DNA from: Gemmatimonadaceae bacterium
GTDB taxonomy: Bacteria; Gemmatimonadota; Gemmatimonadetes; Gemmatimonadales; Gemmatimonadaceae
Length of the DNA: 64,000 bases
Direction of reading: 5' to 3'
Assembly (NCBI GenBank): GCA_040902075.1
Contig: JBBDXZ010000106.1
Span: forward strand, 4,417-68,416
In this document: piece after piece, positions 2,925 to 26,183 of the stretch
Layout of the letters: every line of letters starts with the position of its first letter
Position numbering within the stretch: position 1 is the first letter of the stretch
Notes under the pieces: generated by a model
Database searches by the model: none
What the model was told of the DNA's origin: nothing
Seen by the model: only the letters and a program-made list of their open reading frames with translations
Translations under genes and position numbers: made by a program

Positions 2925-3106
2925 CGGTATCAAGCGGTCCATCCACAACGCCTTCCCTTTCCGCTGTACCAATACTGGTACTACAGCCCGGCCTCGAGCC
3001 CCCTCGCGCTCTTCCCGTAGACTCTGGGGACGCCGACGTAGCCTAATGAAGAAGGAGACGCGTGCCGAGACTTAGGGAAACCGCGCTCTTGTGAGGACGC
3101 ACCAAA

Positions 3107-3862
3107 ATGCTGGTAGAACTCGTCGAGAAGACCTGCAGTGCGATCGACCGTCTGCCAATGGAGGATGCATTGCCCGGGCTGCAGCTCGAGCTCCGGCAGC
3201 ATGCTCCTGACACAATCGCAAACCTCAGAAATGAAGCCGTGAAAAACGGAAGCTCTCCGTCCGAGAACGACGCCGTTGTGGCGGCGTCGATGCTGACGTT
3301 CGAGCACGTGAAGGGCCTTCCAACTCTCGCGCGGCTCATGGTGCAGAAGATGAGGGATCGAAGCGCCGATCCTGCCCGACGCTGCGCCGTCGCTGGCGTG
3401 CTCGCCTATCTCGTTCAGCCGCACGACGTGATTCCCGATAGCGCGTCGGGGGGATACGGCTGGCTGGATGACGCGATCCTTCTGCGCGCCGGCCTGGTCG
3501 AGTACCTGAACCTGCTGCCGCCGGGACAGACCAACCTCGAGTTCGAGCAGAAAGTCGTGGGAGTGCTCGTGAGCCTGGCCCCGGCTGACGCGCGACTGGC
3601 GCTCCAGCAGGCCATTGGCACGATGTCGCTTTCCGTTCAGCTAATGGGCCTCATGGAGGCCGAGATCGCGGAGCTGATCCTCGCGAAAGTGATAGCCAAT
3701 CCGTTCGCGACGGCGCAGCAAGCCGCTCCGCGCGGCTTCCGCGCTAAGACTGTCCCGAGTTATGATCGCGGACACTGGTCCGCGGGAATGTATTTCGAAG
3801 GGAACAGCGTTGTCATTCCCGGAGGGCCATCGCTGCTCGACGGCCAGCAATTCATTCCGTAA
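3107..3862 (+). CDS. DUF1232-like protein, paralogue A (about 80 percent aa identity by eye to 17011..17769)
   Basis: 251-aa ORF. AGVLAYLVQPHDVIPDSASGGYGWLDDAILLRAGL matches the DUF1232/YkvA core (Y..P.D.IPD...G..DD). It is near-colinear with the second copy, including about 30 nt of leader. Confidence 0.75.
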   Translation: MLVELVEKTCSAIDRLPMEDALPGLQLELRQHAPDTIANLRNEAVKNGSSPSENDAVVAASMLTFEHVKGLPTLARLMVQKMRDRSADPARRCAVAGVLAYLVQPHDVIPDSASGGYGWLDDAILLRAGLVEYLNLLPPGQTNLEFEQKVVGVLVSLAPADARLALQQAIGTMSLSVQLMGLMEAEIAELILAKVIANPFATAQQAAPRGFRAKTVPSYDRGHWSAGMYFEGNSVVIPGGPSLLDGQQFIP

Positions 3863-3876
3863 TGGCTAACCGTACC

Positions 3877-3893
3877 ACGCCGCTTTGCGGCGT
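3877..3893 (+). terminator. Short GC hairpin downstream of DUF1232-like A
   Basis: ACGCCGC-TTT-GCGGCGT is a 7-bp perfect stem with a 3-nt loop, 15 nt after the stop. Only a weak T tract follows (cggattctt). Confidence 0.3.
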
Positions 3894-3982: not shown

Positions 3983-4010
3983 GTCATCCCGAGCGAATCG
4001 AGGGATCTGC
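3983..4010 (+). repeat. REP-like element, family 1 (GTCATCCCGAGCG-N-CGAGGGATCTGC)
   Basis: gtcatcccgagcgaatcgagggatctgc. Further copies are at 5235-5262 (inverted), 14454-14537 (2.5 copies), 27405-27432 and 37733-37778. Confidence 0.85.
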
Positions 4011-5234: not shown

Positions 5235-5262
5235 GCAGATCCCTCGCTGCGCTCGGGATGAC
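5235..5262 (-). repeat. REP-like element, family 1 (inverted orientation)
   Basis: gcagatccctcgctgcgctcgggatgac is the reverse complement of the family-1 consensus. It lies in the 53-nt spacer between 4166..5227 and 5281..6153. Confidence 0.85.
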
Positions 5263-6228: not shown

Positions 6229-8025
6229 CTAGGTCCCGGCGGCGACAATCTCGAAATCGTCCACCAGGAAAGTCGTGGTTTTGCTGCCACGCTCCCTCGA
6301 GATCAGCTTGATCCGTATCGTCCGCCCAGCATAGCTGCTCAGGTCTACCGTGCGCTGCTCGAATCCCGTCGTGACGTCCATGTTCGAGAAGCTCGCCAAC
6401 GACTCCAGCGGCTTGCCCTGGGTGTCCGCGACCAACACGAGGAGTCCATCGACCGCCGCGCTTCTGCTCTCATCGCTAGAGATGAACAGATAGAAGTTCA
6501 AGCTGATCGAGCCGGTCGTCGGCGGCAGCGCGACGTCCTGCCACAAGCTGTCGGTGTGATTGCTAGCGTGCCCGCCTAGCCACGCCTTCCATTGCCCGGT
6601 CCGCGCCGGGTTCTTCCGGTCCGACGTGATCACCCCGGCCGAAGCGGACCATCCCACCGAGCCATCCTCGAATCCGGGATTGGCGATTGGGACGCGACCG
6701 GTGGACGCCTGCACGACCCCGATGAGAGTGTCCGAATCGGACGGACCTTCATCCGGGAGGATGACGTTCATCAACATCCCGAACAGCGCGAACGCGCCGA
6801 GCACGATCAGCCCTCGACGGGACACCGTCTTGGTCATCCGCCAAAACCGCTGGAGATGTGTGATTGACGGCGGCACGACATCTCGCACGGTCGGCGGCAT
6901 CGGCGGCATCGGCGGCATCGGCGGCTTGGGATCGTTCGTGCCGCCATTCGCCTTCATCACGTCGTCCTTTCGCTTCGGCCACGACCAGCGGCGCCACGAC
7001 GGCTCGACGCCCGGCCCACCCGCTGGAGCACCCGCGCCTACGTCCGTCGCCTCCTGGAGATCCTTCCAGGCGCGTACGAACACCGCCGGTGACATGCGCT
7101 CGAGCCCCAGAAAATCGTCGAACAGCCGATGGAACTTCTTGTCAGTCTCGGACTCCGGTCCATGCTCCATCAGATACAGCGCGTTCTTGTAGAGTCCCGC
7201 GGGGATATCACCCTGGTTGTACCACTTTGCCAGTCGCTTGCGTCGGCGCTCGGCCGCCGAGCGCTCCTGCTCCTCATCGCGCCGCCGCTGCCGTTCGCGA
7301 CTCCACGCGACGATCGGCGACCCCGCCGTCTTCATTCCGGTGTATTGCGGACGTTGGCCTCGCAGCTTGGACTGAGCGTACTGGCTCAGCTCAGCCACCG
7401 TGATCTCGCCATCGTCGTTGAGATCAGCCTCGCCCGACGTGATGCCGTCGATCAGACAGCGCGTGAAGGCGCCCAGCGTCTCGGATTCCGCCGTGTGCTC
7501 CTGCGATACCTCTGCGGCGTCCGACGAGCTGAGGATGTGCAGCCCGGGCGCTCGCGCGATCTGCAGCTGGTCGCTGAGCGCGCTCCGAGTCGTCGCGAAC
7601 GCTTCGGCCGCCGCTCCGCTGAAGCAGCAGTCCAACATGAGCGTCACCTGCTCGCACGGTGACTCGCCGATCAGCTCGCGCATCTGCGGCAGGGTCAACG
7701 ACGTCGCCGCGAGCGCGTTGATCTTCGTGTCCCGGGCGCAGAGGCACAGTTGGCCGCGAAAGCTGAGCTTCCCGTGTCCCGAGTAGTAGATGAGCAGCAT
7801 GTCCGTTGGCGACGCGTCCGCCAGGAGATGCCCGACGGCCTTGCGAATGTCGGCGCTGGACGCGTTCACCAGCAGATCGTCGACCTCGAACTTGCCGAGC
7901 GCGTCGTCCTTGAGGATGGTGCTCAGACGCAATACGTCCGACGCGGGACCGCGCAGCGGAAGCAGCGCTCCACCCGAGTCGGGGAACTCGCCGTTGCCTA
8001 TCAGAAGTGCCCTGCGCCTGGTCAC
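6229..8025 (-). CDS. Caspase-family (peptidase C14) protease with one TM helix and a C-terminal extracytoplasmic jelly-roll (CBM/galactose-binding-like) domain
   Basis: 598-aa ORF. It has ALLIGNGEF, a catalytic His in LLIYYSGHGKL and a catalytic Cys in LMLDCCFSGAA. There is an EF-hand-like DLNDDGEITVAEL, a basic coiled coil and a PMPPMPPMPP linker encoded by a 9-bp repeat at about 6893-6925. A single TM helix (GLIVLGAFALFGMLMNVIL) is followed by NPGFEDGSVGW...FLVDDFEI, typical of CBM4/9-like sandwiches. Confidence 0.9.
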   Translation of the reverse strand: MTRRRALLIGNGEFPDSGGALLPLRGPASDVLRLSTILKDDALGKFEVDDLLVNASSADIRKAVGHLLADASPTDMLLIYYSGHGKLSFRGQLCLCARDTKINALAATSLTLPQMRELIGESPCEQVTLMLDCCFSGAAAEAFATTRSALSDQLQIARAPGLHILSSSDAAEVSQEHTAESETLGAFTRCLIDGITSGEADLNDDGEITVAELSQYAQSKLRGQRPQYTGMKTAGSPIVAWSRERQRRRDEEQERSAAERRRKRLAKWYNQGDIPAGLYKNALYLMEHGPESETDKKFHRLFDDFLGLERMSPAVFVRAWKDLQEATDVGAGAPAGGPGVEPSWRRWSWPKRKDDVMKANGGTNDPKPPMPPMPPMPPTVRDVVPPSITHLQRFWRMTKTVSRRGLIVLGAFALFGMLMNVILPDEGPSDSDTLIGVVQASTGRVPIANPGFEDGSVGWSASAGVITSDRKNPARTGQWKAWLGGHASNHTDSLWQDVALPPTTGSISLNFYLFISSDESRSAAVDGLLVLVADTQGKPLESLASFSNMDVTTGFEQRTVDLSSYAGRTIRIKLISRERGSKTTTFLVDDFEIVAAGT

Positions 8026-8044
8026 AACGCCTCCTAGAAAATCC

Positions 8045-8413
8045 TCATGCTGGCTTGGCGGCTTCGCCCAGGCTTTTCACGAGCATGTCCGCGTCCTTCG
8101 CTGACAACCTCTTGCCGTCGATCTTGATCTCCTTGCCGTCGGCTCCCTTGACGCTCACGGACAGCGATCGGTCGCGCTCGAGATATGTCTTGAGACACGC
8201 GATGAGTGCCGTCGCGGCGCCGCCGGTGAGAAAGGTCAACACGATCTGACCGAGCATCGCATCGCCCCGCTCACCCGGCTTTGCGGCGCTCGGCGGCGGC
8301 TCCACCCGCAGGTCGGGACTTTTGCGCAGCGACGCCGCGAACTCGCGAGCCAACTGCGCCTGCTGGCTTGCGGGCCTGTCGCTGTGCAGCTCAACCGATA
8401 TCGTCGCGCTCAT
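8045..8413 (-). CDS. EACC1-like small membrane-associated protein (effector-associated constant component-like)
   Basis: The ORF track gives 8045..8434. The Met at 8413 has a GAGG 8 nt upstream. The layout is an N-terminal beta/alpha segment (ISVELHS...QLAREFAASLRKSPDLRV), a Gly/Ala-rich hydrophobic segment (MLGQIVLTFLTGGAATALIACL), then V.V.G.DG.....G. This matches my memory of EACC1 proteins that precede caspase or trypsin effectors. It ends 19 nt before the caspase start. The assignment is an inference. Confidence 0.5.
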   Translation of the reverse strand: MSATISVELHSDRPASQQAQLAREFAASLRKSPDLRVEPPPSAAKPGERGDAMLGQIVLTFLTGGAATALIACLKTYLERDRSLSVSVKGADGKEIKIDGKRLSAKDADMLVKSLGEAAKPA

Positions 8414-8542
8414 GGTGGACCTCGGCTGCGGCACGGGAATCTCCCATCCGAAGGTTGCGTATTGCGCGGCGGTTGTCCACGGGGAATGTGCTCCCCGTAA
8501 ATCTTAGGAAGCGTTAAGGTTGCGCCGCGCTGTTGCAGTGTT

Positions 8543-9121
8543 TTGTCCGACCGCGAGCCCCACGTTACCGGTATATCGTTCCCCAACCGTTCCTTGGGTG
8601 TTCCCGACGTTCCTCGGCCTACCTCCACACCGGCGCGAGCGTCGCACCGTCCTTCACCGCGACAAGTCGTGATTCGCGAGCCTTACTCGGACCTTATCAC
8701 AGTTCTGGTATCACGGTCTCGGATTGAGCAGTCTCGACGTGTTTGCGCACCGGGGGAGGGCGGTGACCTGAGACTCTGCGCCTGCGAATCGATTCGTATC
8801 TTCGGGTCCGTCGTCGGGGGTCAGGGCGGGGAGGGTGGTCACGCGGTCGCTTACGCGCAGAACGGATGGTCGGGCGAGGCCGAAGGAGGTCCGGGCAACG
8901 CGGCGGGACATGTCTACTTCACAGGAATCGCGAATACGCCCTGCGCGGTCATGATCTCAGGGTCCGTCTCCGCCTCCATCGGCGGATGGGGCGGCGAAGT
9001 GGACGCGTACGGCGGCATGGGTGCCACGGCCGGCGGCAATGCGACGGCCATCGGCGGTCGAGCGGGTCCGGGCGGTGCGGGCCGCGTCGCGGTGGCGGCG
9101 AGCGTAACCGGGGTTCCTTAA
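8543..9121 (+). CDS. Possible glycine-rich orphan protein (weak)
   Basis: 192-aa ORF in the 785-bp gap between two minus-strand operons. The 3' two-thirds (GGQGGEGG...GGWGGEVDAYGGMGATAGGNATAIGGRAGPGGAG) has high third-position GC and the 5' third does not. There is no canonical internal start and no family recognised. Confidence 0.25.
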   Translation: MSDREPHVTGISFPNRSLGVPDVPRPTSTPARASHRPSPRQVVIREPYSDLITVLVSRSRIEQSRRVCAPGEGGDLRLCACESIRIFGSVVGGQGGEGGHAVAYAQNGWSGEAEGGPGNAAGHVYFTGIANTPCAVMISGSVSASIGGWGGEVDAYGGMGATAGGNATAIGGRAGPGGAGRVAVAASVTGVP

Positions 9122-9219
9122 CGTTTGCTCAGATGGCGTCAATGATCGACGCATTCAATCGCAGCCTTTTCCGCGTGCAACAGCCGCCCGCTTGATCTTT
9201 TACTTGCGAGTGCGAAACC

Positions 9220-10413
9220 CTATCTCCAGATCGGCGCCAACTGGGCTCCTTCACTCACGGCCTGATCCAACCGCGCCTCAGCCGCCTCCCACAACAGCGT
9301 CGTCGCATGCCGCACTCCGACTGGGAACGCCAGAATCCGCTCGGCATTGTTCGGCACGAGGTACCGCACCGCCTCGGCTAAACGCTCGAGCCGCACCTCG
9401 GGCGGAGGGTGCGCGTCGTGCGTGTACGGTCGATCGCTCTCCTCGGCCGCGCTCAACTTCGCGACGGCGCGATACACGAGCTCCACGATCGTGAAGAACA
9501 GCTCGACCCCGGTGTACACCAGCGTCAAGTCGGTCCGGTCCTTCAGGGCGTGGAAGGTCAACATCAGCCCCATCCAGTCCGCCTCGAATTCCTGCTGGTG
9601 CGACGCCACCAGCTCGTCCGCCTCCTCACTGAAGCTCATCAGCGCGCCGGAGCCATGAGCAATCTCGAGATGTCCCGCGAGGACGTGCCCGTACTCGTGC
9701 CCCATCACGAAATACTCCAGCGCTTCCCGGAATTCGGTGGCCGCCTTCGACGGCTGCCATTCCTGTATATAGGAAGGCGCCTTCACCGGTGTGCCGTCCA
9801 GCACGTACGCGAGCAGCGCTTCGGAGAATCGCTGAATGGCGCGGCCGTCGCCGCGGATGTGGCGCTCGACGTCTTCTTCTGCGGTCGAAAACGTGAGCCC
9901 TCCCTCCGCGGTCTCTTTGAACGGCAACGCGTACGCCACGGCTTTCGTGAAGAGCAGCGCAAAGACGAAGAAGTGGCTCTCGAACAGCACGAAGCGTCCA
10001 GGCACCAAGCGATGCTTGAGCGCGAGCGCGTTGACGCGCCGAGAGGGCAGGCTGCCGAACCAGATGCGGTGCGGACGCGGGAGCGACAGCTTGGCGATGA
10101 CGGCTTCGAGATCGGTCGAGATGTCGCCAAGGATTGTTTGCCAGAACGGGTTCTCGTACGGCGTGAACGGCTCCGTCCCACCAGAAAATGACTTGGTGAG
10201 CTCGTCGCGCATGTGGTCGCGATGATCCGGATGGAAGCTCTCCAGCACGCGCTCGAGGAACGCCGGGTCCAGCTTCTGGCGGAGAAGCGCGATGCTCTCG
10301 CGCTCGGCGTCACCGTATTCGCCGAGCTCGGATAACGTCTTCTCTTGAAGCTGGGTCAGAAACCGATACGCCGCCGCTTTCTCCGCCGCCGCCTCCGCCG
10401 CCTCTGAATCCAC
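9220..10413 (-). CDS. HExxH zinc metalloprotease, ImmA/IrrE(M78)-like motif arrangement
   Basis: 397-aa ORF with FVMGHEYGHVLAGH followed about 30 aa later by QQEFEADWMG (HExxH ... ExxA[D/N]). The GTG start overlaps the TAG stop of the upstream CHAT gene by 1 nt (TAGTG at 10411-10415), implying translational coupling. Confidence 0.7.
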   Translation of the reverse strand: MDSEAAEAAAEKAAAYRFLTQLQEKTLSELGEYGDAERESIALLRQKLDPAFLERVLESFHPDHRDHMRDELTKSFSGGTEPFTPYENPFWQTILGDISTDLEAVIAKLSLPRPHRIWFGSLPSRRVNALALKHRLVPGRFVLFESHFFVFALLFTKAVAYALPFKETAEGGLTFSTAEEDVERHIRGDGRAIQRFSEALLAYVLDGTPVKAPSYIQEWQPSKAATEFREALEYFVMGHEYGHVLAGHLEIAHGSGALMSFSEEADELVASHQQEFEADWMGLMLTFHALKDRTDLTLVYTGVELFFTIVELVYRAVAKLSAAEESDRPYTHDAHPPPEVRLERLAEAVRYLVPNNAERILAFPVGVRHATTLLWEAAEARLDQAVSEGAQLAPIWR

Positions 10414-13400
10414 TAACGCACCGCGGGCCTTCGCCGCGCCGTTTTGTCCGCCTTTTTGTCCGCCGTTATGTCCGCAGTCTTGTCACTCCACACGACGCGA
10501 CCGTCCGGATTGCCGTAGACGACGTAGGCGAGCCACGTTCCCTCGCGCGCGCGCATCGCGGCATCGCGCCCCGCGCGTGCCGCCGCGGCGATCGTCTTTC
10601 CCTTCCGCAGCTCCTTGTAGAACGCCTCGGTGAACGTGTGCGCCGGTTCGTCGCCCACCGCCCACAGCGTCCCGACGAACGCACCCGCGCCCTTGCCCAG
10701 GAACGCCTGCGCGAATCCACCGACGCTCGTGAGCTTCCAGTTGGGCCGCCCAACCTGGCAGGCGTTGAGCACCACCAGGGGACGATTACCCTGCGGCCCC
10801 GTGAGTGACGCATGCTGCTGCACCTGTTCGGAATCGAAGTACGAGGGCGTGTAGGTTTGTCCCGAGAGATCGCCACGCATCATGATCTTCGCCGCTGGCG
10901 ACGGAGCCTGCGACGTCTGGATCTCCGCCTCCCCATGTCCCGCGAAATGGAAGTGGTCGACACTGCCCGCGGTCGCGATCAGCTTCCGGATCGCGTTGAC
11001 TTCGGCGGCGTGCTCCTTCGCCCCCAGCTTGTCGCGTAGGAACGGGATCTCCTTCTGCGCCGCGGGGAGCTCCCAGTCCTTGACCGGATACGCCGGAATG
11101 ACGTAGTACGAGTGGCCTGCGCGGATGCGTATCTCGGGCGGAGCCGCCGGATAGTTGGCCAGCCACCGCACCAGCCCCTTCTGCGCCAGGAAGTGAGTCT
11201 CGGGTCCCAGAGACGACGCCGGCCTTCCGGGGACACGCGGCTCCTTGAGGTGGACGACCTCCCAAGGAATGAAGGGTTCCTTCGACGCCACGAGGATCGC
11301 GTCGAGCGTGTCGCGCGCGTCCCACAGCGGCCGCTGGATCTCCGGCGGCACGAGCTCGTCGAACAGCGTTCCTCCGAAAGCGCGCAGCTCCTGCTCGAAC
11401 GCTTCCACGTCCTCCTTGTTGCGCAGCCAGCGATCCTCGATCTGGCTGTACATGTTCGCGATGTAAGCGGCGCGATCCACTTTGAGGGGATCGGACACTC
11501 CGTCCACGAACTGATTGCGCCCCAGGATCAGCAGGAACTTGTAGCACAGCGACTTGCCGTGGCTCACCTCTTCGATGATGAGCATCGGGTACTCGCCGCC
11601 GCTCTGGGCAACCGGTTCCGCTTCAGCCTGCGCGGCCACCGACGCCGAGTCTTTCGCCGAGACTTTCGCCGCGATCTTGGGACGCAGAACCAACGTCGCC
11701 AGCTTCTGCACACCTTGAAGGATCAGGAGCTGGACCTCGCCCTGACCGTTGTGCGTCGGTTTCACCTGGAACATGAGATCGAATCGTCGCTGCGCCGTCG
11801 GATCGAGTACCGCGCGCGCTTCGCCCACTACGTCGATGTTCTTCGTGCCGATGAGCTGTACCACGAGCTCGCGCTCGAGGTTGACGGGCGCGTCGCCGCG
11901 CGCCTCCAGCACTCCCTCCACCGCTTCGATGACGTCGCGCGAGATCGTGGCGTGCACCTGCGTCGTCTTCTTCACCTGAACTGTCTGCGGCATGTGCGCG
12001 GAGAAATAGAACTTCGCGGTCGGTGGGCCGCCGCCGGCTGAGCCTTCACCGCCTCCCGCTCCCCCGCCGGAGCCCGCCGGCCCATCGGCAGGAGGAGGGG
12101 ACGTGCGAGGCGGAGGCGCGGACCGCGTCATTGCCTCCGCCATGCGAGGCATCGAACGCCGCCGCATCAGGTCCGCCATCACGATGTCGTCCGGATCGAT
12201 TCGCACACGTCCCGAATCACGCCTCCCCATCTTTCCGCTCGCGCGCCTCGGCGCGGGGGCTGCTGCCGGTGGAGCGCGCCTCGCTCCGCGTCGCACGCCC
12301 ATGGTCATGCTGCTCTTGATCTCCGCCACAGACTGGCCGAACGCCGGATCGATCACGGCGCGTGGAGCGATGCCGTCCAGCACGACGGTGCGAATCGCGG
12401 TGAACCCCCGGTTCCCGAAGTTCTCCCGCGGCGCGCGCGGGTTGCTCATCGGCACCGATCCCGACGCGCTGTCCTCGCCGAGCGCGAGCACGGGGTCGTC
12501 GTCCAACGCCTGCCACAGCGGTTCCTTCGGCTCGAAGCCCGCTGACGCCTGCCGCTTGGTCCCGTAGCCGAGCAGCTCTTCCGACCTGAACGCATAGACG
12601 TAGGGCTTGTAGGGCCGGTTGTCACGCATCACGACGACGTACTTCGGCAGCTCGGCGCGGATCGTGGCCAGGACGTCGCCGAATTGATCGTCTGATTGCA
12701 TCACCACGAACGACGTGTCCGCCTCGGCGGTCAGGCCCGCGGCAATCTCGATCTCGCCCGTGTGTCCCGCGTACCGGACATCCAGCTCCAGCCACTTCTC
12801 GAGTGCGCGCACGACCTCGGGTTGCGCGAAGTAGATCGTGTGATAGACGTGCGGGTTCTTTCCGAACTCCAGCTTGTCCTTCACGAATGCCCCCGCCGAG
12901 GGGTCGATGTGCGACATGGATCCGATTCCCACGAGCAGATCGTTCGGCTCGCGCATCAGCTTGTCCACGAACGAGTCCGCGAGCCACTGCTTCAAACGGG
13001 GAGAAAGCTCCGGCGCGCCGGGGCCGGTGAGATCGATGTTGAAGTCGGAGGACACGACGTAGAAGAGCGAGTCGGCGGCGCTCGGCTGTCCCTTCTGCGT
13101 CTTGTTGATCTCCGTGACGAAATCGCCGTCGGGCTCCATCGCGCTCAGACCGGGCGCACGGCGCTCGGAGATGGCGGCGGTGGCCAGATGCTTCACGAGC
13201 GTGCCCACCGTCTGCACCGTCTCCTTGATGATGACGCCGGCGCCGGGCGCGCCGAGCAGGGAGACGACGCGGCCGCCCGCGACCGCGATGTTGGTGTACA
13301 GATCGATGAGCTTCTTCCAGTTGTCGGGCTCGGCGAACTTGGTCCCGCCATTCGCGCCGCCCACGAATATCGCGCGTCGAACGCACGACCCCAGCGACGA

Positions 13401-14390
13401 ATGTGGGAGCAGATGCTCGATGAAGCTCCGCAGCACCAGCGCGCCCCGGCTGTGCGAGATCGCGTCGATGTGCGGCGCGATGCCGAAGCGGCTGCGCTCC
13501 AGCCGGGCCAACAGGTCGGTCGCGTTCTCGAGCGGGTCTTCCGAGAGCGTGGGATGATCGTATCCGACCACGACGTCGTACGTGTCCAGCGCGTCGGCGA
13601 GGAATGCCTTGCCCGCGTCGGTCGCCGTGAGCGCGCCGAACGCGCCCACCGTGCTGCTGAACGTCCCGTGCACGAACAGCAGGATCCGCGGCGCGCGGTC
13701 GGTGGGCAGGACCACCGTGCGCAGATCGTCCATCACCCGCCAGTCGCTCGGGTCGTCGGCATCCATGACGACGAACGCCTTGCGCGCGTTGCGCTCCAGG
13801 AACTTGATGCCCTGGCCGACCGCAAGGCGGGCGACGAACTTGAGCACGTAACCGCGAACCGTCTTCGCGACGAATCCCAGCGGTCCGCCGCGCCTGGTCC
13901 GCGTGCCGGCGCCAGTGCCGGTGCTGCTGCCAGTGACGCCGAGGTCGAAGGTGACGGTCTTGCGACGCCCCTCGACGAGCGGTCCGCGCCGGGTGGAGGG
14001 CGCGACTTCGACTTTCGAAGGCTCGATGCGCCACTCGTAGACGTCGTCCGTCTCGAGCAGCATGACCGCGTCTTCACCCTCGGCGAGATCGACGGTCGCC
14101 TTCCTGGGCTGTGCACGCGCGCCCCGCTTTGCAGTTGGCGGCTCGTCCGGAAGCTCGACCTCGAATGCCGCGATGAGCTCCATGTCCTGCGCGCGCAAAC
14201 TCTCGACGACCGGATCGGTCGTCCTCTCGCCTCGCGCCGTCGTGTCGCCGACGGAGATGGGGCCGCGGGGGAGGGGACGCCGTCCGCGTCGCACGCCGGC
14301 GTCCGGTGTGGGTGCAACGGAGAGGTCGCGTGCCGTAGCGCCGTCGGGGAGGTCGAGCTGAACACCGCCGACTGTGATGCTGATCGTCAT
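10413..14390 (-). CDS. Giant alpha/beta-hydrolase-CHAT fusion protease
   Basis: 1325-aa ORF. N-terminal third: ILLFVHGTFSS, the nucleophile elbow DAISHSRGALV, and later EPNDLLV and NPHVYH, which is a lipase/esterase-like Ser-Asp-His arrangement. Middle: a Pro/Gly low-complexity linker (PPPRTSPPPADGPAGSGGGAGGGEGSAGGG). C-terminus: a CHAT dyad, HFHFAGHGEAE and LVVLNACQVG, then AFVGTLWAV.D. Confidence 0.9.
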   Translation of the reverse strand: MTISITVGGVQLDLPDGATARDLSVAPTPDAGVRRGRRPLPRGPISVGDTTARGERTTDPVVESLRAQDMELIAAFEVELPDEPPTAKRGARAQPRKATVDLAEGEDAVMLLETDDVYEWRIEPSKVEVAPSTRRGPLVEGRRKTVTFDLGVTGSSTGTGAGTRTRRGGPLGFVAKTVRGYVLKFVARLAVGQGIKFLERNARKAFVVMDADDPSDWRVMDDLRTVVLPTDRAPRILLFVHGTFSSTVGAFGALTATDAGKAFLADALDTYDVVVGYDHPTLSEDPLENATDLLARLERSRFGIAPHIDAISHSRGALVLRSFIEHLLPHSSLGSCVRRAIFVGGANGGTKFAEPDNWKKLIDLYTNIAVAGGRVVSLLGAPGAGVIIKETVQTVGTLVKHLATAAISERRAPGLSAMEPDGDFVTEINKTQKGQPSAADSLFYVVSSDFNIDLTGPGAPELSPRLKQWLADSFVDKLMREPNDLLVGIGSMSHIDPSAGAFVKDKLEFGKNPHVYHTIYFAQPEVVRALEKWLELDVRYAGHTGEIEIAAGLTAEADTSFVVMQSDDQFGDVLATIRAELPKYVVVMRDNRPYKPYVYAFRSEELLGYGTKRQASAGFEPKEPLWQALDDDPVLALGEDSASGSVPMSNPRAPRENFGNRGFTAIRTVVLDGIAPRAVIDPAFGQSVAEIKSSMTMGVRRGARRAPPAAAPAPRRASGKMGRRDSGRVRIDPDDIVMADLMRRRSMPRMAEAMTRSAPPPRTSPPPADGPAGSGGGAGGGEGSAGGGPPTAKFYFSAHMPQTVQVKKTTQVHATISRDVIEAVEGVLEARGDAPVNLERELVVQLIGTKNIDVVGEARAVLDPTAQRRFDLMFQVKPTHNGQGEVQLLILQGVQKLATLVLRPKIAAKVSAKDSASVAAQAEAEPVAQSGGEYPMLIIEEVSHGKSLCYKFLLILGRNQFVDGVSDPLKVDRAAYIANMYSQIEDRWLRNKEDVEAFEQELRAFGGTLFDELVPPEIQRPLWDARDTLDAILVASKEPFIPWEVVHLKEPRVPGRPASSLGPETHFLAQKGLVRWLANYPAAPPEIRIRAGHSYYVIPAYPVKDWELPAAQKEIPFLRDKLGAKEHAAEVNAIRKLIATAGSVDHFHFAGHGEAEIQTSQAPSPAAKIMMRGDLSGQTYTPSYFDSEQVQQHASLTGPQGNRPLVVLNACQVGRPNWKLTSVGGFAQAFLGKGAGAFVGTLWAVGDEPAHTFTEAFYKELRKGKTIAAAARAGRDAAMRAREGTWLAYVVYGNPDGRVVWSDKTADITADKKADKTARRRPAVR
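10444..10486. repeat. 12-bp periodic (T/A)TGTCCG half-array embedded in the 3' end of the CHAT CDS (family 3)
   Basis: ttgtccg/ttgtccg/atgtccg/cttgtca at 12-bp spacing (unit ends at 10450, 10462, 10474, 10486). It encodes the tail DKTADITADKKADKTA. The same unit forms the intergenic arrays at 20823-20993, 22853-22927 and 26205-26223. Confidence 0.7.
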
Positions 14391-14453
14391 GTGGCCACCT
14401 GGGAGGGCGATCGAATGCCTATGCTACGGCGCGGGAAATCCGATGTCCATGTT

Positions 14454-14537
14454 GTCATCCCGAGCGCAGTCTGTCATCCCGAGCGCAGCGAGGGATCTGC
14501 AGTTGAAATGTCAGCCCGAGCGCAGCGAGGGATCTGC
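14454..14537 (+). repeat. Cluster of 2.5 tandem REP-like family-1 elements in a divergent control region
   Basis: A partial copy gtcatcccgagcgcag (14454-14469), a full copy at 14473-14500 and a full copy (gtcaGcccgag...) at 14510-14537. All lie inside the 249-bp spacer between the two divergent CHAT genes. Confidence 0.85.
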
Positions 14538-14639
14538 GCACTACTCCGCAATTCTTAACGTTTGTTAAGCCGAGTATTCGGCAGTATTGTGGGAGAGGCA
14601 TCCCACCTAGCTTGGCCTCGTACATCGTGAGGTACCAAA

Positions 14640-16982
14640 ATGCCCCTCGAGCGTGTACCCACCGTCCAGCAGATCCTGGACACCTTCCGTGCGGGCGACA
14701 GTGCGCGCCGCCGACGGCTCATCCAGGAGTGTTCGGCTACGTCCATGACCGACATGGCGCTCATGGCGGCCGGCATGGATATGACGACGATGCGCGCGCA
14801 GGCGCTCGACTTCCTCGCGATGAGCTACGCGAACTCGGGACCGCTGGACTGCGCCACCAACTTCGGCGCCGCCTGTTACCAGTTCTCGAGCGAGGAATAC
14901 GACTCCAGCGATCCGCGCGACGACGTCTACCTGCTGTGTGCGGGGCGCGGCGCGATCAGCTGGATGACGTCGCTCCAGCGGCAGGGCAGGCACACCGAGA
15001 TCCTCGCCGAGTCGGACACGGTCTTGGCCTGGCTCGGGAAAGCGGGTGACACGCAGAATGCCGACAGCCTTCGACTCAAGCAGATCGAAGCGCAGCTCGA
15101 CCTGGAGCGGTACGACGCCGCGGAGAAGCTCCTCGACGCTATCGACGAGGCCGCGCTTCCTCGGTTGGTGCAGGTGTCCTTTCGAGCGCTCCGCGAACGG
15201 CTGAAACAGCGCAAAGGCGGCGGCACCATGCTTTCCGAGGAGGCCGACGATCCCTCCGACGCTCTGAAGCGAGTGCTGGGCGTGAAGGTCGAGAAACGAG
15301 AGAAGCCGGCATCTCCCAAGGGTATCGCCACGGAGCAAACCTGGAAGGACGTGCAGGAGCTTGGCGACGCGACGCGCAGCGTCCTCGACAAACTGTTCAA
15401 GGGCGGAAGCGGGGAATTGGCCATCCGGCAGGAGATCCTGGAGGCCGCGTCGCTGTTCGCCGATCCCGTTGCCGGTCGCGACCGCGCGAGGATCGCGGAG
15501 AGCGAGGCGGTGTTGCTGCGCGCGCGGGATTGGATGGCTGAGAACAACTTTCCTGAAAACGAGAACGACGCGTGCTGGGGCTTGTATCTGTGCTACTCGC
15601 GCACGGCGCGGGAAGCGCTCGCGGCGGCCGAGTTGCAGCGCATTCGCGGGAACATCGAGATCGCTCGACTCAACATCGCGAGTCCCACGGAGCGGGCAAA
15701 CCTCTCCGCGCGCTTCCCCTACCTCTATCCCGCGCTGTGCACCATGCTGTACAAGCTCGATCGTCCCGCGGAGATGCTGGAGGCCATCGAGTCGAGCAAG
15801 GGCCGCGCGCTCGCGGACCTCGTCGCCCTGCGTGGCGGTGTGATTCTCCCCGACACGGCGTTAGCCAGCTCCGTCCGGGAGCTCCCGGCGCTCATGCAGC
15901 GGCTGGACGCGCATTACCACACATTTCTCGTGGATACCGACTGCACCTACACCGCGAGCGTCTTCAGCGACGGAAGCGTGCGGACGGGCAAAGTGAGTCT
16001 GGGGCAGGAGGCGCTCAACAAGCTCGCGAGCACGCTCGAGGACCACACGCGCCGCTCGGTTCCCGCCGTCCCACGAAAGTTCGGTGACGCGCTGGCGCCG
16101 CTGGTGAGTCATCTGGAGCCGCTCGTGCGCGCAGGGGTGATCCACAAGGGGGAGCACCTCTGCTATTCCCCGGACGACGCGATCCATGTGCTGCCGCTCC
16201 AGTGCGCCACCTTTCTCGGAGGCCCGCTCGTAAAGACCGTCTCCGTCTCGCGCGCGCAGGGCGCGCATTTTCTCGTCGAGCTCATGAAGCGGGAGCCGCT
16301 GCGACCCAAGACCTTCGTCGCCGTCGAGGTTCCCGCCGCCCAGGATCTCGAGTCCATTCCCAAGCTCCGGGCCTTTCGCGCGCCGGTGAAGTGGCTCGCT
16401 GACAACGTGAAGAAAGGTGAGACCATCGCCGGAGAGCAGGCGGATCTGGCAAGGGTGAGCGCGGCGAAGCTGTCCAACACGCTCGTGCACTTCGCGACGC
16501 ACGGTGTCTTCCCGTCGAAGGACCAGAAAGGGCAGGCCGCGAATCCATATCAGGCGTCGGGAATGCTGCTCGCGGCCAACGGCAAGCTGCCGGACCTGGA
16601 CGCCGTCGCGAGGGGCAAGGCGATCGAGCATTCGCTCACGCCAAAGTGCGCGGTGGAGCTCGAGCTCGATCTCTCACGCTCACATCTGACGCTGCAAGCC
16701 TGCGTCAGCGGTCTCGCCAGGGAAGGCATCGGCGGTGATGCGCTCGGACTGGAGTGGGCGTTTCTGCAACTGGGCGCCGCGAGCATCCTCGCGACGCACT
16801 GGGACGTTCGCGCGGACACGACCAGCGATTTCGTCGCACGATTCTATACGCGCTGGTTGACCAAAGGTGAAACGCGAGCCGTCGCGTGGAGGAGCACGAT
16901 CGAGGACTTCCTCGGCAGCAAGGGTGAGCTCGCCGAGGCGTACAACTGGTCCGCCTTTTCACTGTCCGGGGACTGGAGATAA
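14640..16982 (+). CDS. TPR-like/helical N-terminal domain + CHAT protease
   Basis: 780-aa ORF with a long helical N-terminal region. The CHAT region has SKGRALADL, the His in LVHFATHGVF and the Cys in HLTLQACVSGL, then ASILATHWDV.D. Confidence 0.9.
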   Translation: MPLERVPTVQQILDTFRAGDSARRRRLIQECSATSMTDMALMAAGMDMTTMRAQALDFLAMSYANSGPLDCATNFGAACYQFSSEEYDSSDPRDDVYLLCAGRGAISWMTSLQRQGRHTEILAESDTVLAWLGKAGDTQNADSLRLKQIEAQLDLERYDAAEKLLDAIDEAALPRLVQVSFRALRERLKQRKGGGTMLSEEADDPSDALKRVLGVKVEKREKPASPKGIATEQTWKDVQELGDATRSVLDKLFKGGSGELAIRQEILEAASLFADPVAGRDRARIAESEAVLLRARDWMAENNFPENENDACWGLYLCYSRTAREALAAAELQRIRGNIEIARLNIASPTERANLSARFPYLYPALCTMLYKLDRPAEMLEAIESSKGRALADLVALRGGVILPDTALASSVRELPALMQRLDAHYHTFLVDTDCTYTASVFSDGSVRTGKVSLGQEALNKLASTLEDHTRRSVPAVPRKFGDALAPLVSHLEPLVRAGVIHKGEHLCYSPDDAIHVLPLQCATFLGGPLVKTVSVSRAQGAHFLVELMKREPLRPKTFVAVEVPAAQDLESIPKLRAFRAPVKWLADNVKKGETIAGEQADLARVSAAKLSNTLVHFATHGVFPSKDQKGQAANPYQASGMLLAANGKLPDLDAVARGKAIEHSLTPKCAVELELDLSRSHLTLQACVSGLAREGIGGDALGLEWAFLQLGAASILATHWDVRADTTSDFVARFYTRWLTKGETRAVAWRSTIEDFLGSKGELAEAYNWSAFSLSGDWR

Positions 16983-17010
16983 AACCGCACTCTTGCGAGG
17001 AGACGTCACA

Positions 17011-17769
17011 ATGCTGGTACAGCTCGTCGAGAAGACCTGCGCCGCGATCGACGGTTTGAACATGGAAGATGCATTGCCCGGGCTGCAGCTCCAGCTCCGG
17101 CAGAGTGCTCCTGATGCAATCGCAAACCTCAGGACGGAAGGCGTGAAGCACGGAGGCAACCCGTCCGAGAACGACGCCGTCATGGGAGCGGCATTGCTGG
17201 CGCTCGTGTACGTCAAGGGCCTTCCGGCTCTTGCACGACTCATGGTGCAGAAGATGAAGGATCGGCGCATCGACGCTGCCCGGCGCTGCGCCGTCGCCGG
17301 CGTACTCGCTTATTTCGTTCAGCCGCACGACCTGATTCCCGACAATGCGCCGGGCGGTTACGGTTGGCTCGATGACGCGATTCTTCTGCGTGCCGGCCTG
17401 ATCGAGTACCTGAACCTGCTACCGCCAGGACAAACCAAGGTCGAGTTCGAGCAGAAAGTCGTGGGAATCCTCGTGGGCCTGACCCCGACTCACGTACGGC
17501 CTTCGCTCCAGCAGGCTATCGGCGCGATGTCGCTCGCCGTTCAGGTAATGGGCCTCATGGAGGGCGAGATCGCGGAGTTCGTCCTTGCGCAAGTGATAGC
17601 CAATCCGCTCAATACAGATCCGCCGGTCGTTCCGCCTGGCTTCAGACCTCACAGTGTTCCGAGTTATGATCGCGGACACTGGTCCGCGGGCATGTACTTC
17701 GAGGGAAACAGCGTGGTCATTCCCGGAGGACCATCACTGATCGACGGCCAGCTTTTCATTCCGACCTAA
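17011..17769 (+). CDS. DUF1232-like protein, paralogue B
   Basis: The ORF track gives 16867..17769, but the ATG at 17011 (MLVQLVEKTC...) aligns with the start of paralogue A and avoids overlapping the CHAT gene. It has the same DUF1232 core (YFVQPHDLIPDNAPGGYGWLDDAILLRAGL). It starts 28 nt after the CHAT stop, and its stop overlaps the convergent NlpC/P60 stop by 4 nt. Confidence 0.75.
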   Translation: MLVQLVEKTCAAIDGLNMEDALPGLQLQLRQSAPDAIANLRTEGVKHGGNPSENDAVMGAALLALVYVKGLPALARLMVQKMKDRRIDAARRCAVAGVLAYFVQPHDLIPDNAPGGYGWLDDAILLRAGLIEYLNLLPPGQTKVEFEQKVVGILVGLTPTHVRPSLQQAIGAMSLAVQVMGLMEGEIAEFVLAQVIANPLNTDPPVVPPGFRPHSVPSYDRGHWSAGMYFEGNSVVIPGGPSLIDGQLFIPT

Positions 17770-18473
17770 CCGTACCACTTCACCTTGAGCGCCTTGGCCG
17801 TTCCGCGACCCACCTCGCCATCCACGAGCAGGCCCTTCGACATCTGAAACGCCTGCACGGCCGCGGCGGTCTGCGGACCATAAACGCCGTCGATCGGGCC
17901 CGCGTGGAACCCGATCTTCTTGAGCCGACGCTGAACGTCCTTCACCAGCTCGCCCCTCATGAGAGGCGTCTTCACGCGCAGCACGAGCGCCGGACGCTTC
18001 GGCGGCTTCGGCGCGTCCTCCACCTTCACCGTGATCCCGGGGACGAGCACGCCGGTGTGCCAGCGACGCCCCTCGGATCTGCTCTCGATCACGCCCTTCT
18101 TCGAGGAATGTGCTTCGACGGTCTTTCCATTTCCCATGGAAATCACGACGTGGCCCACCGCGCCCCCCTCGGGCGCCCGCAGGAGAAACGCACCCGGCGT
18201 CGCGCTGGCCTGACCGATCGAGATCAGTTTCCCAAGCTTCCGCGCGTCCTCCATCCAGAAGCCGGAGTACGCGTCCGCGATATCCGGACCCTGCGCCCGC
18301 GGCCGGCAGCCAAACAGCTTGCCCGTCGCCTGGAACACGCACCACGACGCGAACTCGGCGCAGTCCCACGGACCCGCCCACTCGGGATTGCCCTTTGGCA
18401 CTTTGGCGCCGAGGACGTACTGCTCGCCCACGTGGGCGCGGGCGATGCGAAGAAGCGCCGCGGCAGTCGCCAT
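17766..18473 (-). CDS. NlpC/P60-family peptidase + peptidoglycan-binding (PG_binding_1) domain, no signal peptide
   Basis: 235-aa ORF. GPWDCAEFASWC carries the nucleophile Cys and GHVVISMG...VEAHS the His. The C-terminal L..G..G.DV..LQ..L...G...G.IDG.YG..T..AV..FQ pattern is the PGB domain. No N-terminal hydrophobic signal is visible. Confidence 0.8.
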   Translation of the reverse strand: MATAAALLRIARAHVGEQYVLGAKVPKGNPEWAGPWDCAEFASWCVFQATGKLFGCRPRAQGPDIADAYSGFWMEDARKLGKLISIGQASATPGAFLLRAPEGGAVGHVVISMGNGKTVEAHSSKKGVIESRSEGRRWHTGVLVPGITVKVEDAPKPPKRPALVLRVKTPLMRGELVKDVQRRLKKIGFHAGPIDGVYGPQTAAAVQAFQMSKGLLVDGEVGRGTAKALKVKWYG

Positions 18474-18799: not shown

Positions 18800-18800
18800 G

Positions 18801-18843
18801 GGTCCTCGGGGTCCTCGGGGTCCTCGGGGTCCTCGGGGTCCTC
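18801..18843. repeat. 9-bp tandem repeat GGTCCTCGG x4.8 filling an entire intergenic spacer
   Basis: Units at 18801, 18810, 18819 and 18828, plus a partial unit at 18837. On the coding (-) strand the unit is CCGAGGACC, and each copy carries a GAGGA Shine-Dalgarno-like core. It is bounded by the stop at 18845-18847 and the ATG at 18799. Confidence 0.9.
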
Positions 18844-18844
18844 G

Positions 18845-19758: not shown

Positions 19759-20811
19759 ATGAGTCGCCTTTTCACGATGATGGCCGTGGCGCTGACGAGC
19801 GCCAATATGCTGATTGCGCAAGGCGCCGAGCTTCACCCGCGGTCTCCGATCGTCTTTCTGGAGAAGACGTACTTCTTTCCCCTCGCACCGTACGATCGTT
19901 CGCTGCGCTTCGAGGGCGAGGCCGCCGGGCACTACTTCATCGTCAACCGGCTGGACTGGACGTGGACGAAGGAAGGTGGGTGGAGATACACGGTGCCGAT
20001 CAGCATGGTGTTCCACGTGCGAATGCTCGACATCACGTCGGAACCCGTGCGGACGCCATCGTACCGCATCGGACTGAGGCCGCAATTCATCCACGCATCG
20101 CCGGTCGGGGCCGATCCGGCGAAGTTCAGTTTGTTCGGCATCTCCGGCGGATTCACGCACTACTCGAACGGCCAGCAGGGTTGCACGTACCTGGGATTCA
20201 GTCGTCCGGCCCCCGATGCGGACTGCGTTGTGTCCAACGCCGCGCTCGCGGCGCAGCGCCGAGCCAATACGATTGATGGCGACTTCTCGACGTCGTATCT
20301 GTCGTTGGCAATACATGGGCAGCGGGGAAGACACTATGGCCTCGCCGGACCGACGAGATACCAGCACATCGCGACGCTGGAATTCCAGGCGCATCCGATT
20401 GGTCTGCCGCCCGGTGGCATGAACACGCAACAAGCGCTCGAGTACGGCCAGCACGTGGCCCGGGGGTCGTACGAGTTCGAGCTCCGGCCGCGGCGATGGG
20501 TCGATAAGAAGTGGCGCGGCCTGGCGCGACTCGGTGCGAAAGGCGGCTATCGCTTCTCTTACAAGGGTGGGCCCGACTGGACGTTTCTCACGCTCGAGAC
20601 GTCGTACGTCTTCGACTGTCTTCAGAAGTTCGGTGGCGTGTTTCGCACGCACCTCGGCAGCGACTACTACAACATCAACTTTCAGGACACGCGACCGCTG
20701 TTCGCCGTTGGTCTGATGTGGGACCTGTCGCGGATCGACGCGTTCAATCGCACGGGAATTCGCGGGACCGGGGGGCGGTCACAGAAGGTCTATACATGCA
20801 CGGGTGACTAA
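19759..20811 (+). CDS. Outer-membrane phospholipase A (PldA/OMPLA)-like beta-barrel protein
   Basis: 350-aa ORF with a signal peptide (MMAVALTSANMLIAQGA). GGFTHYSNGQ resembles the OMPLA catalytic H-x-S-N-G motif, and the sequence has an alternating beta-strand character. The family call rests mainly on that motif. Confidence 0.5.
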   Translation: MSRLFTMMAVALTSANMLIAQGAELHPRSPIVFLEKTYFFPLAPYDRSLRFEGEAAGHYFIVNRLDWTWTKEGGWRYTVPISMVFHVRMLDITSEPVRTPSYRIGLRPQFIHASPVGADPAKFSLFGISGGFTHYSNGQQGCTYLGFSRPAPDADCVVSNAALAAQRRANTIDGDFSTSYLSLAIHGQRGRHYGLAGPTRYQHIATLEFQAHPIGLPPGGMNTQQALEYGQHVARGSYEFELRPRRWVDKKWRGLARLGAKGGYRFSYKGGPDWTFLTLETSYVFDCLQKFGGVFRTHLGSDYYNINFQDTRPLFAVGLMWDLSRIDAFNRTGIRGTGGRSQKVYTCTGD

Positions 20812-20822
20812 GAACGAAACAG

Positions 20823-20993
20823 CGGACATAACTACGGACATAACGGCGGACATCAGAGCGGACATAACAGCGTACTTCGGTTTCCGCCGTCATGTCCGCC
20901 TTTGTGTCCGTAGTCATGTCCGTAGTGATGTCCGTAGTGATGTCCGTAGTGATGTCCGTAGTGATGTCCGCTGTTATGTCCGCTCTCATGTCC
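20823..20993. repeat. Large inverted array of 12-bp periodic units: 4x CGGACAT then 9x ATGTCCG (family 3)
   Basis: Forward units at 20823, 20835, 20847 and 20859. Reverse units run every 12 bp from 20892 to 20988, including four perfect GTAGTGATGTCC copies. The conserved left flank CTAAGAACGAAA supplies the TAA stop of 19759..20811. Confidence 0.9.
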
Positions 20994-21635: not shown

Positions 21636-21675
21636 CCGACCGCCTTTGCGCGGGCGCGCCGCCCTGCGGGACGCC

Positions 21676-23015: not shown

Positions 23016-26183
<3,168 letters not shown>

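Follow-up and report, generated by a model that had tools for sequence, protein, structure and literature searches.

Three genes for clan-CD proteases, one caspase and two CHAT proteases, lie within 11.5 kb of the window analysed here, a 64,000-nucleotide stretch (GC ~65%) of contig JBBDXZ010000106.1, from the chromosome of a metagenome-assembled soil Gemmatimonadaceae genome. Do these proteases, together with the EACC1, HExxH, DUF1232 and NlpC/P60 genes around them, form one system? The original prediction, made from the sequence alone, had proposed that the seven genes are a single undescribed multi-protease conflict or programmed-death system. The three clan-CD protease genes are real, their His/Cys dyads appear intact, and they appear to have a conflict or programmed-death flavour. 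Comparison with related loci points to a different arrangement: the 11.5 kb probably hold independent caspase-superfamily modules and not one system. Module A, an EACC1 gene followed by a caspase gene, belongs to a known system. Module B, a hydrolase-CHAT fusion with a divergently transcribed second CHAT gene, would be built around a protease-gated lipase zymogen, and the other genes would be passengers.

Conservation of the locus

Linkage was assessed by tblastn (E<=1) of every island protein against the 80 best loci carrying the fusion gene, with flanks of at most 10 kb. In none of these loci did the HExxH, DUF1232 or NlpC/P60 proteins have a homologue. The EACC1 and caspase proteins likewise had no homologue there, the only matches being to CHAT domains. 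The nearest relative of the island is a 7.9-kb Joint Genome Institute (JGI) contig (L081). It encodes a fusion protein 61-64% identical to that of the window and, in the same divergent arrangement across a 165-bp spacer, a 779-aa orthologue of the second CHAT protein (62% identity). Its other neighbours are an OPT transporter gene and an unrelated gene; the HExxH and DUF1232 genes are absent. The HExxH family, followed through its own metagenome loci, did not keep such neighbours either. Because the fusion loci, L081 and the HExxH loci do not share these neighbours, because the DUF1232 gene lies in a duplicated cassette and because the NlpC/P60 gene lies in another operon, the seven genes do not form a conserved unit. 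The proposal of one undescribed multi-protease system is thus unsupported, and the comparative data essentially bear out the caveat that came with it, namely that unrelated stand-alone modules may have collected here. Of the links proposed within the island, only that between the fusion gene and the second CHAT gene recurs.

The hydrolase-CHAT fusion family

The fusion protein begins with a DUF7362 beta domain (residues 45-157, Pfam score at the cutoff) and continues with a lipase-like alpha/beta hydrolase (residues ~177-535) that carries Ser314, Asp484 and His517; Pfam also matches DUF7379 (E=5.7e-64). A TCAD7-like domain (residues 558-648), below the Pfam cutoff (E=0.004), and a low-complexity linker (residues ~690-795) precede DUF7363 (residues 798-902, E=2e-18). 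The C-terminal part is a CHAT protease (residues 1053-1283, E=1.4e-21), with His1152 in FAGHG and Cys1211 in LNACQ.

The original prediction had not matched this architecture to a named system. It is no local oddity but that of a large, conserved, widespread and uncharacterised family. A search of 5.8 billion proteins gave 223 matches. The 120 matches listed are 1,015-1,375 aa long and 35-61% identical, and nearly all have the same domain order. The typical protein has ~1,250 aa and the architecture DUF7362-DUF7379-TCAD7-DUF7363-CHAT. In a scan of one genome per species, relatives occurred in at least 286 genomes, from Myxococcota, Acidobacteriota, Chloroflexota, Actinomycetota (including Streptomyces scabiei), Bacteroidota, Planctomycetota, Verrucomicrobiota, Desulfobacterota, Deinococcota, Proteobacteria, Gemmatimonadota and Rhodothermales. 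Culturable hosts include Streptomyces scabiei, Corallococcus sicarius and Hymenobacter aranciens. His1152, Cys1211, Ser314, Asp484 and His517 are all invariant in alignments of 35 and 50 sequences, and a single chain apparently combines an active lipase-like serine hydrolase with an active CHAT protease. A literature search for DUF7362, DUF7363, DUF7379 and TCAD7 found no paper, the supplement text of Kaur et al. (2020) holds no TCAD entry, and PADLOC has no model for the family.

The hydrolase assignment was confirmed by structure prediction and sharpened to lipase-like. The AlphaFold (AF2) model of residues 1-700 had a mean predicted local distance difference test score (pLDDT) of 82.2 and a predicted template modelling score (pTM) of 0.78. 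The best PDB matches of the hydrolase model in Foldseek were bacterial lipases (E ~1e-6, best 8e-7, probability 1.0), namely Proteus and Pseudomonas lipases, LipC12, BlEst2 and phospholipase PlaB. A PDB sequence search with the hydrolase domain returned nothing significant. BlEst2 (from Bacillus licheniformis, PDB 6wpx/6wpy) is activated by removal of a pro-peptide. Unlike the fusion, BlEst2 and PlaB are secreted or virulence lipases without a fused protease, and their identity to the fusion hydrolase is 12-16%.

Two Arg-Gly dipeptides precede the hydrolase core, at residues 135/136 (nt 13983-13988) and 167/168 (nt 13887-13892). Among 114 fusion homologues, R135 is present in 87% and G136 in 80%, R167 in 93% and G168 in 89%; 78 of the 114 have both dipeptides. 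The second lies in a loop (residues 155-172) that is modelled as disordered, with a pLDDT <50, and the alignment columns that flank it are variable.

Some observations concern the mobility of the family. Integrases or transposases adjoin the fusion gene in several loci. In two loci, L148 (4141-5328) and L154 (10003-11311), phage-type integrases lie near fusion homologues, which suggests that some copies may sit on integrative elements; no fusion homologue was found in phage genomes. Distant hydrolase and CHAT fusions also occur on plasmids. On the megaplasmid of Ruegeria pomeroyi DSS-3 (NC_006569.1, 129335-136139; locus L150), SPO_RS20450 encodes a shorter, distant protein of this kind (966 aa). 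It is followed on the same strand by genes for a 986-aa AAA-family ATPase and a 297-aa hypothetical protein, and an IS5 transposase gene adjoins. This locus may represent an NTPase-coupled variant in a model organism. In another genome (L153, 8069-9582), an M78 peptidase and helix-turn-helix (HTH) pair of the ImmA/IrrE type lies near a fusion homologue without being adjacent to it.

A second CHAT gene as the recurrent partner of the fusion

The 780-aa CHAT protein has a C-terminal CHAT domain (nt 16113-16973) with His621 in FATHG and Cys688 in LQACVSG. Its N-terminal ~490 aa are predicted to be all-helical in a low-confidence model; the AlphaFold model of the protein, built from a three-sequence alignment, had a pLDDT of 44.6 and was unusable. 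The TPR region initially assigned to this protein was not borne out, as no TPR family matched residues 1-487 even at E<=5. Only three homologues were found in the 5.8 billion proteins. The His/Cys dyad is conserved, and a homologue with 41% identity has no fusion gene beside it.

For a scan of the fusion loci, a CHAT profile was derived from proteins of the window and of the loci. A second CHAT ORF (open reading frame) lies within 10 kb of the fusion gene in 19 of the 80 loci. It is directly adjacent (gap <=200 bp) in 11 of them and less than 1 kb away in a twelfth, that is, in ~15% of the loci. Among the 109 nearest-neighbour ORFs of 60 loci, CHAT is the only recurring Pfam family, with 11 members, the others having at most two. 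The density of CHAT genes further out in the flanks, which is already high, served as the null: within 3 kb of the fusion, 12 CHAT genes were observed versus 4.3 expected (Poisson P=0.002). For close homologues in loci with called genes (n=8, the window included), a CHAT gene is adjacent in five and 4.6 kb away in a sixth. All-against-all clustering of the flanking ORFs of the 80 loci revealed no conserved neighbour family once shadow ORFs and a single set of contigs from closely related Intrasporangiaceae were set aside. The second CHAT gene is the only recurrent partner of the fusion.

Partner architectures differ between loci: CHAT-SIR2, CHAT with CBM9, CHAT-STAND-WD40 (in one locus) and large helical proteins with a C-terminal CHAT domain. 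In five of the partners, it is the CHAT domain that matches the PADLOC SAVED_CHAT model. Four loci have, next to the fusion, members of one helical subfamily of ~1,100 aa that are conserved from end to end (27-36% identity); these loci come from Chitinophagaceae (Bacteroidota), Acidobacteriota, Phycisphaeraceae (Planctomycetota) and a taxonomically unassigned JGI genome (L152). The divergence of this subfamily is comparable to that of the fusion itself. The 780-aa partner of the window is of a rarer type.

The spacer between the two divergent genes is longer in the window than in L081, and the 85 extra bp are accounted for by its partial REP (repetitive extragenic palindromic)-like copies. A motif common to both spacers (window 14391-14440, L081 2990-3031) consists of CATGGAC, ~15 nt and TAGCATAGG. 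Placed ~25-50 nt before the start of the fusion gene, it may represent a promoter or operator.

Module A is a typical EACC1-caspase pair

The EACC1 and caspase genes had been counted among the components of an undescribed system. They correspond to the two-gene conflict system described as System 4 by Kaur et al. (eLife 2020, PMC7159879), whose mechanism was worked out by Evans et al. (2025; bioRxiv 10.1101/2025.11.14.688446). In System 4, a 5' EACC1 gene encodes a protein with a single transmembrane (TM) helix that carries a small-residue patch, and a 3' gene encodes an N-terminal caspase followed by one of ~50 alternative domains; at least one third of the caspase components have TM helices, sometimes followed by an extracellular domain (PMC7159879). 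In Ktedonobacter, the caspase cuts an autoinhibitory N-terminal part off EACC1, leaving a toxic C-terminal fragment that permeabilises liposomes; the EACC1-caspase pair was sufficient by itself in these experiments (bioRxiv 10.1101/2025.11.14.688446).

The EACC1 protein of the window matches PF19953 over model positions 4-103 of 107 (E=2.2e-10, 40.9 bits for a cutoff of 23.6). It has a single TM helix, LGQIVLTFLTGGAATALIACL, with a small-residue patch (residues 61-81, nt 8192-8254, hydropathy 1.82). By analogy, it is predicted to be a latent pore-forming toxin. The caspase domain of the 3' gene product (residues 3-229, nt 7339-8019) matches Peptidase_C14 (PF00656, E=2.9e-18), with His84 in YYSGHG and Cys133 in DCCFSG. 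NCBIfam NF047832, 'caspase, EACC1-associated type', is matched with 149.4 bits for a cutoff of 140. A charged, Pro-rich linker follows the caspase domain, then a TM helix (residues 405-423, nt 6757-6813, hydropathy 2.35) and a C-terminal domain of ~170 aa (nt 6232-6738) that is presumably extracytoplasmic. This last domain had no Pfam match and no significant PDB sequence match. Since the Pfam and NCBIfam scores are above their cutoffs, and since the gene order and the TM-containing caspase component agree with Kaur et al. (2020), module A is, at every sequence-level point compared, a typical member of the EACC1-caspase system.

Like System 4 and the Ktedonobacter EACC1-KrAvs12 pair, module A has a 5' EACC1 with one small-patch TM helix and a 3' caspase with an intact His/Cys dyad. 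As in System 4, the caspase carries a variable C-terminal region that includes a TM helix. It differs in that this region consists of a TM helix and the ~170-aa domain and not of an Avs/STAND, DGR, DnaK or PBP part. Its host belongs to Gemmatimonadota and not to Actinobacteria or Chloroflexi. By analogy, a signal that reaches the membrane-anchored caspase by way of its variable C-terminal part, here the TM helix and the outer domain, would activate it. The caspase would then cut EACC1 upstream of the EACC1 TM helix, at a site predicted to lie close to Asp58, and the freed C-terminal fragment would oligomerise, form membrane pores and kill the cell. So understood, the pair brings a characterised system to Gemmatimonadota and adds to it a new, membrane-spanning sensor part.

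Two partner CHAT proteins of fusion homologues (L041, L050) end in a CBM9-like domain, and the window caspase likewise has a C-terminal domain; no sequence similarity was detected between these CBM9-like domains and the caspase C-terminus (6232-6738). Joining a clan-CD protease to an outer domain that putatively binds carbohydrate may be a sensor design that recurs.

Proposed mechanism of module B

Death effectors that are switched on by proteases are increasingly seen as a dominant principle of bacterial immunity, one that parallels the caspase pathways of eukaryotes. Module B would comprise the 1325-aa fusion and the divergent 780-aa helical CHAT protein. We infer that the fusion is a self-contained lipase zymogen under the control of a protease. 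Either the CHAT domain of the fusion or the neighbouring CHAT protein would cleave at the conserved Arg-Gly sites. This cut would remove the N-terminal DUF7362 domain, and the released lipase or esterase would attack a putative lipid substrate and damage membranes, in defence or suicide. Where present, the second CHAT protein, with its variable non-protease part, would be the protease that receives the signal or acts as initiator.

When a dipeptide is conserved while the loop around it varies and is disordered, this usually marks a processing site. CHAT-mediated cleavage is proposed because one of the conserved Arg-Gly dipeptides lies in such a loop and because there is a precedent: a stand-alone alpha/beta hydrolase zymogen is cut twice, between Arg and Gly, by the neighbouring caspase (Evans et al. 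2025; bioRxiv 10.1101/2025.11.14.688446). In that pair, LcHydrolase and LcCaspase of Lysobacter capsici, as in the alpha/beta-hydrolase and caspase pairs of the vWA-MoxR-VMAP ternary systems (Kaur et al. 2020), a caspase-superfamily protease goes with a lipase-like hydrolase. The likeness extends to the two Arg-Gly dipeptides of the fusion, which match the R↓G cleavage motif of LcHydrolase, to the TCAD7-type domain, which the fusion family shares with the vWA-MoxR-VMAP systems, and to the second caspase-like protein that is often alongside. However, the fusion unites protease and hydrolase in one chain of 1,250-1,325 aa with DUF7362 and DUF7363, and no sensor-fused caspase (VMAP, STAND or beta-transducin) adjoins it.

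Several points weigh against this mechanism, or against the division of the island on which it builds. The first Arg-Gly dipeptide lies in a confidently modelled beta strand, and both dipeptides could be structural. The fusion sites lie N-terminal to the HG strand, whereas those of LcHydrolase lie after it, between the HG strand and the nucleophile. In hhalign, LcHydrolase (WP_060410396.1) and the family profile aligned over only 20 columns at the nucleophile elbow, with a probability of 1.6%, a single-sequence query being of limited sensitivity. On this result and the different position of the Arg-Gly sites, the idea that the fusion hydrolase is a fused homologue of LcHydrolase was rejected. 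In addition, ~80% of fusion genes have no CHAT neighbour, and the conserved Arg-Gly sites therefore cannot depend on the partner; any cleavage would in most cases have to be accomplished by the CHAT domain of the fusion. Most neighbours of the fusion genes are metabolic genes of an ordinary kind, and matches to PADLOC defence models are few, so that island context gives a defence role no backing. Finally, the one-base overlap of the fusion and HExxH genes suggests co-translation here, which leaves room for a local functional link between the two.

Other known systems offer partial parallels. In a type III-B CRISPR-Cas system, a SAVED-CHAT protein activates PCaspase (Steens et al.; bioRxiv 10.1101/2023.06.23.546230), a precedent for a CHAT protease that activates a second caspase-like protease encoded together with it. 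The window differs in having no SAVED domain, CRISPR array, cas genes or evident cyclic-oligoadenylate signalling, and in that its second protease carries a lipase domain. The type III-E Craspase TPR-CHAT protein (Csx29) and the gasdermin-activating proteases also use a CHAT or caspase domain as the switch of a toxic effector, but the window has no gRAMP/Cas7-11, Csx30/31 or gasdermin, and profiles find no TPR in the 780-aa protein.

Alternative readings

How far, then, does the cooperation between the genes reach? At one extreme, all seven would form one integrated multi-protease cascade, with the caspase and both CHAT proteases working in series, that ends in membrane or cell-wall damage by the DUF1232, hydrolase and NlpC/P60 proteins. 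Their tight clustering in three compact operon-like pairs would suit such a cascade, and bacterial clan-CD cascades such as SAVED-CHAT with PCaspase do exist (bioRxiv 10.1101/2023.06.23.546230). We nevertheless consider it very improbable, since homologues of the HExxH, DUF1232, EACC1, caspase and NlpC/P60 genes are missing within 10 kb from every fusion locus, L081 keeps only the two CHAT genes, and the EACC1-caspase pair is sufficient alone in experiments. The DUF1232 gene is moreover a mobile duplicate, and the NlpC/P60 gene lies on the other strand in a different operon. At the other extreme, the fusion would be a single-gene system, and the neighbouring CHAT gene a separate conflict gene that lands in the same variable regions, with no cross-talk between them. 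This is a real possibility, although less probable than our reading of a fusion-centred module B. It agrees with the many fusion genes that have no CHAT neighbour, with the heterogeneity of the partners (CHAT-SIR2, CHAT-CBM9, CHAT-STAND-WD40 and helical-CHAT), with Arg-Gly conservation that is independent of partner presence, and with the 41% homologue of the 780-aa protein that stands without an adjacent fusion gene. It does not readily explain why CHAT is the only enriched neighbour and usually immediately adjacent, why fusion and partner have diverged in parallel in L081, or why one partner subfamily accompanies the fusion at full length in four loci, of which three belong to different phyla. 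Nor is a combination of two caspases with a hydrolase without precedent: in Kaur et al. (2020; PMC7159879), a caspase in one component was already noted to occur together with another caspase and an alpha/beta hydrolase.

Module B might also act outside conflict altogether, as a regulated enzyme of lipid or envelope remodelling, or of protein processing, in physiology, stress or development. The mostly housekeeping neighbours with few PADLOC matches fit this explanation, as do the failure to find phage-borne copies and the lack of a PADLOC model for the family. We hold it to be unlikely: the family is patchily distributed over more than 10 phyla, integrases or transposases are adjacent in several loci, the TCAD7 domain is known from the vWA-MoxR-VMAP conflict systems, and the variable, sensor-like CHAT partners and the protease-plus-hydrolase logic match experimentally shown death modules. 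Our preferred reading, a protease-gated zymogen that the partner may trigger, can be taken one step further. The fusion and a sensor-bearing adjacent CHAT protein would then form an NTPase-free two-tier system analogous to initiator and executioner caspases. The variable part of the partner (helical repeats, STAND-WD40, SIR2 or CBM9) would sense the threat, the partner would cut the Arg-Gly sites, the CHAT domain of the fusion would amplify the signal in trans, and the lipase would destroy the membrane. This extension is speculative, and we would not expect it to hold in full. If it did, it would be a new widespread death pathway, in at least 286 species, with the executioner protease and the lipid-degrading effector in one polypeptide. 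Should the second CHAT protein prove a true partner, bacterial protease cascades would have a simple model in this pair. The fusion family, a large one with members in many phyla and with no entry in PADLOC or in the literature searched, is together with its Arg-Gly sites the part of the locus most worth following up: protease and effector share one chain, and the two sharply conserved dipeptides make a directly testable cleavage hypothesis.

Passenger genes

The original prediction had labelled the HExxH protein ImmA/IrrE-like and had made it the operon partner of the fusion. Neither idea held, the second in view of its absence from all the related loci. An M78/ImmA-IrrE assignment was rejected, there being no Peptidase_M78 or COG2856 signal and no HTH neighbour. 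The sole Pfam match is a weak one to Peptidase_M48 (E=1.6e-5), and the family profile touches BepA around the zinc motif. The family has 1131 representatives of ~390 aa, with H239, E240, H243, H248, E275, D279 and H335 invariant; it was found by an exhaustive HMMER search, a word-indexed search having returned only the protein itself. The metagenome scan was seeded with an 11-sequence alignment, as a 46-sequence alignment was too divergent. CHAT genes were absent from 63 of the 64 metagenome loci, the remaining one (L130) having a weak downstream match (E=4e-4), and no neighbour was conserved across the 64. On this comparative evidence, the HExxH gene is a non-conserved passenger and not a component of the system.

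The DUF1232 gene is present twice in the window, as an 801-bp cassette at 3078-3878 and 16982-17778. The copies are 76% identical in amino acids and 82.5% in nucleotides, and the duplication spans ~29 nt upstream and ~10-16 nt downstream of the gene. That the flanks are included suggests that this small gene was recently duplicated within the genome or is mobile. A decayed CHAT gene before copy a was also considered and rejected: tblastn of the CHAT proteins against the window found no extra copy. The NlpC/P60 gene, likewise proposed as a component, never co-occurs with the fusion. From their sequence context, the DUF1232 cassette and the NlpC/P60 gene are best regarded as passengers.

Gene content of the window

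The gene coordinates, gaps and His/Cys and HExxH motifs first reported were exact on recheck against the ORF map and translations, and profile searches confirmed the caspase, EACC1, CHAT, DUF1232 and NlpC/P60 assignments (Table 1). A gap of 19 nt separates the EACC1 gene from the caspase gene that follows it, and the HExxH gene shares one base with the stop codon of the fusion gene.

Table 1. Features of the locus, with positions in the window.
Feature	Position	Strand	Size	Basis or details
Hydrolase-CHAT fusion	10413..14390	-	1325 aa	Pfam, homologues, AF2 model, Foldseek
Second CHAT protease	14640..16982	+	780 aa	CHAT E=3.3e-29
Shared divergent spacer	14391..14639		249 bp	three partial REP-like copies at 14453-14537
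EACC1 protein	8045..8434	-	129 aa (possibly 122 aa from Met8)	PF19953
EACC1-associated caspase	6229..8025	-	598 aa	PF00656, NF047832, PADLOC caspase
M48-like HExxH metalloprotease	9220..10413	-	397 aa	HEYGH residues 239-243 (nt 9685-9699)
DUF1232 copy b	17011..17769	+	252 aa	PF06803 E=2e-8; 28 nt after second CHAT gene
DUF1232 copy a	3107..3862	+	251 aa	cassette nt 3078-3878; no protease gene beside
NlpC/P60 and PG_binding_1 cell-wall hydrolase	17766..18473	-		Pfam; last gene of separate minus-strand operon

Third-position GC bias is strong, as in real genes, in the caspase, EACC1, HExxH, fusion, second CHAT and NlpC/P60 frames, and weaker (~0.70) in that of DUF1232 copy b. The usual partners of such proteases are missing, as the original prediction had noted. 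No CRISPR-like array was found in the window, and no gasdermin among the 19 window ORFs scanned with PADLOC and Pfam. A PADLOC scan of the seven island proteins and the flanking genes found no cas or STAND gene, and Pfam and PADLOC found no vWA, MoxR, VMAP or STAND gene in the window. For the seven island proteins, PADLOC gave only a generic caspase match and a marginal BovA match (780-aa CHAT protein, E=7.5e-4). The other genes of the window include kinases, a sigma factor, a glycosidase and an M1 peptidase, and the region does not obviously form a mobile element.

Between the EACC1 and HExxH genes lie 785 bp (8435-9219) without codon-position GC bias. The longest ORF there has no Pfam match, and an Rfam scan of 1-24 kb, this gap included, gave no match. 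A possible 56-aa Gly-rich ORF lies at 8953-9121.

Outside the island, a Uma2-family endonuclease gene, 289-861(-), matches the PADLOC candidate PDC-S03, a PIN-domain protein is encoded at 21204-21743(-), and two Ser/Thr kinases with TPR regions, 23016-26183(+) and 30738-32576(+), give generic PD-T4-6 matches. These are generic domain matches and no evidence of defence systems.

A REP-like intergenic element, GTCATCCCGAGCGCAGCGAGGGATCTGC, occurs at 3988-4007, 5238-5257(-), 27410-27429 and 37756-37775, and as the three partial copies, in tandem, in the divergent spacer; its 20-nt core has six matches versus 0.02 expected by chance. At 18800-18844, a perfect 9-nt repeat, GGGTCCTCG, present five times, exactly fills the 45-nt gap between two minus-strand ORFs. 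Just downstream of the unassigned gene at 19759-20811, an array with a 12-nt period, TGTCCGTAGTGA (~6.5 copies), and a related array occupy positions 20818-20993.

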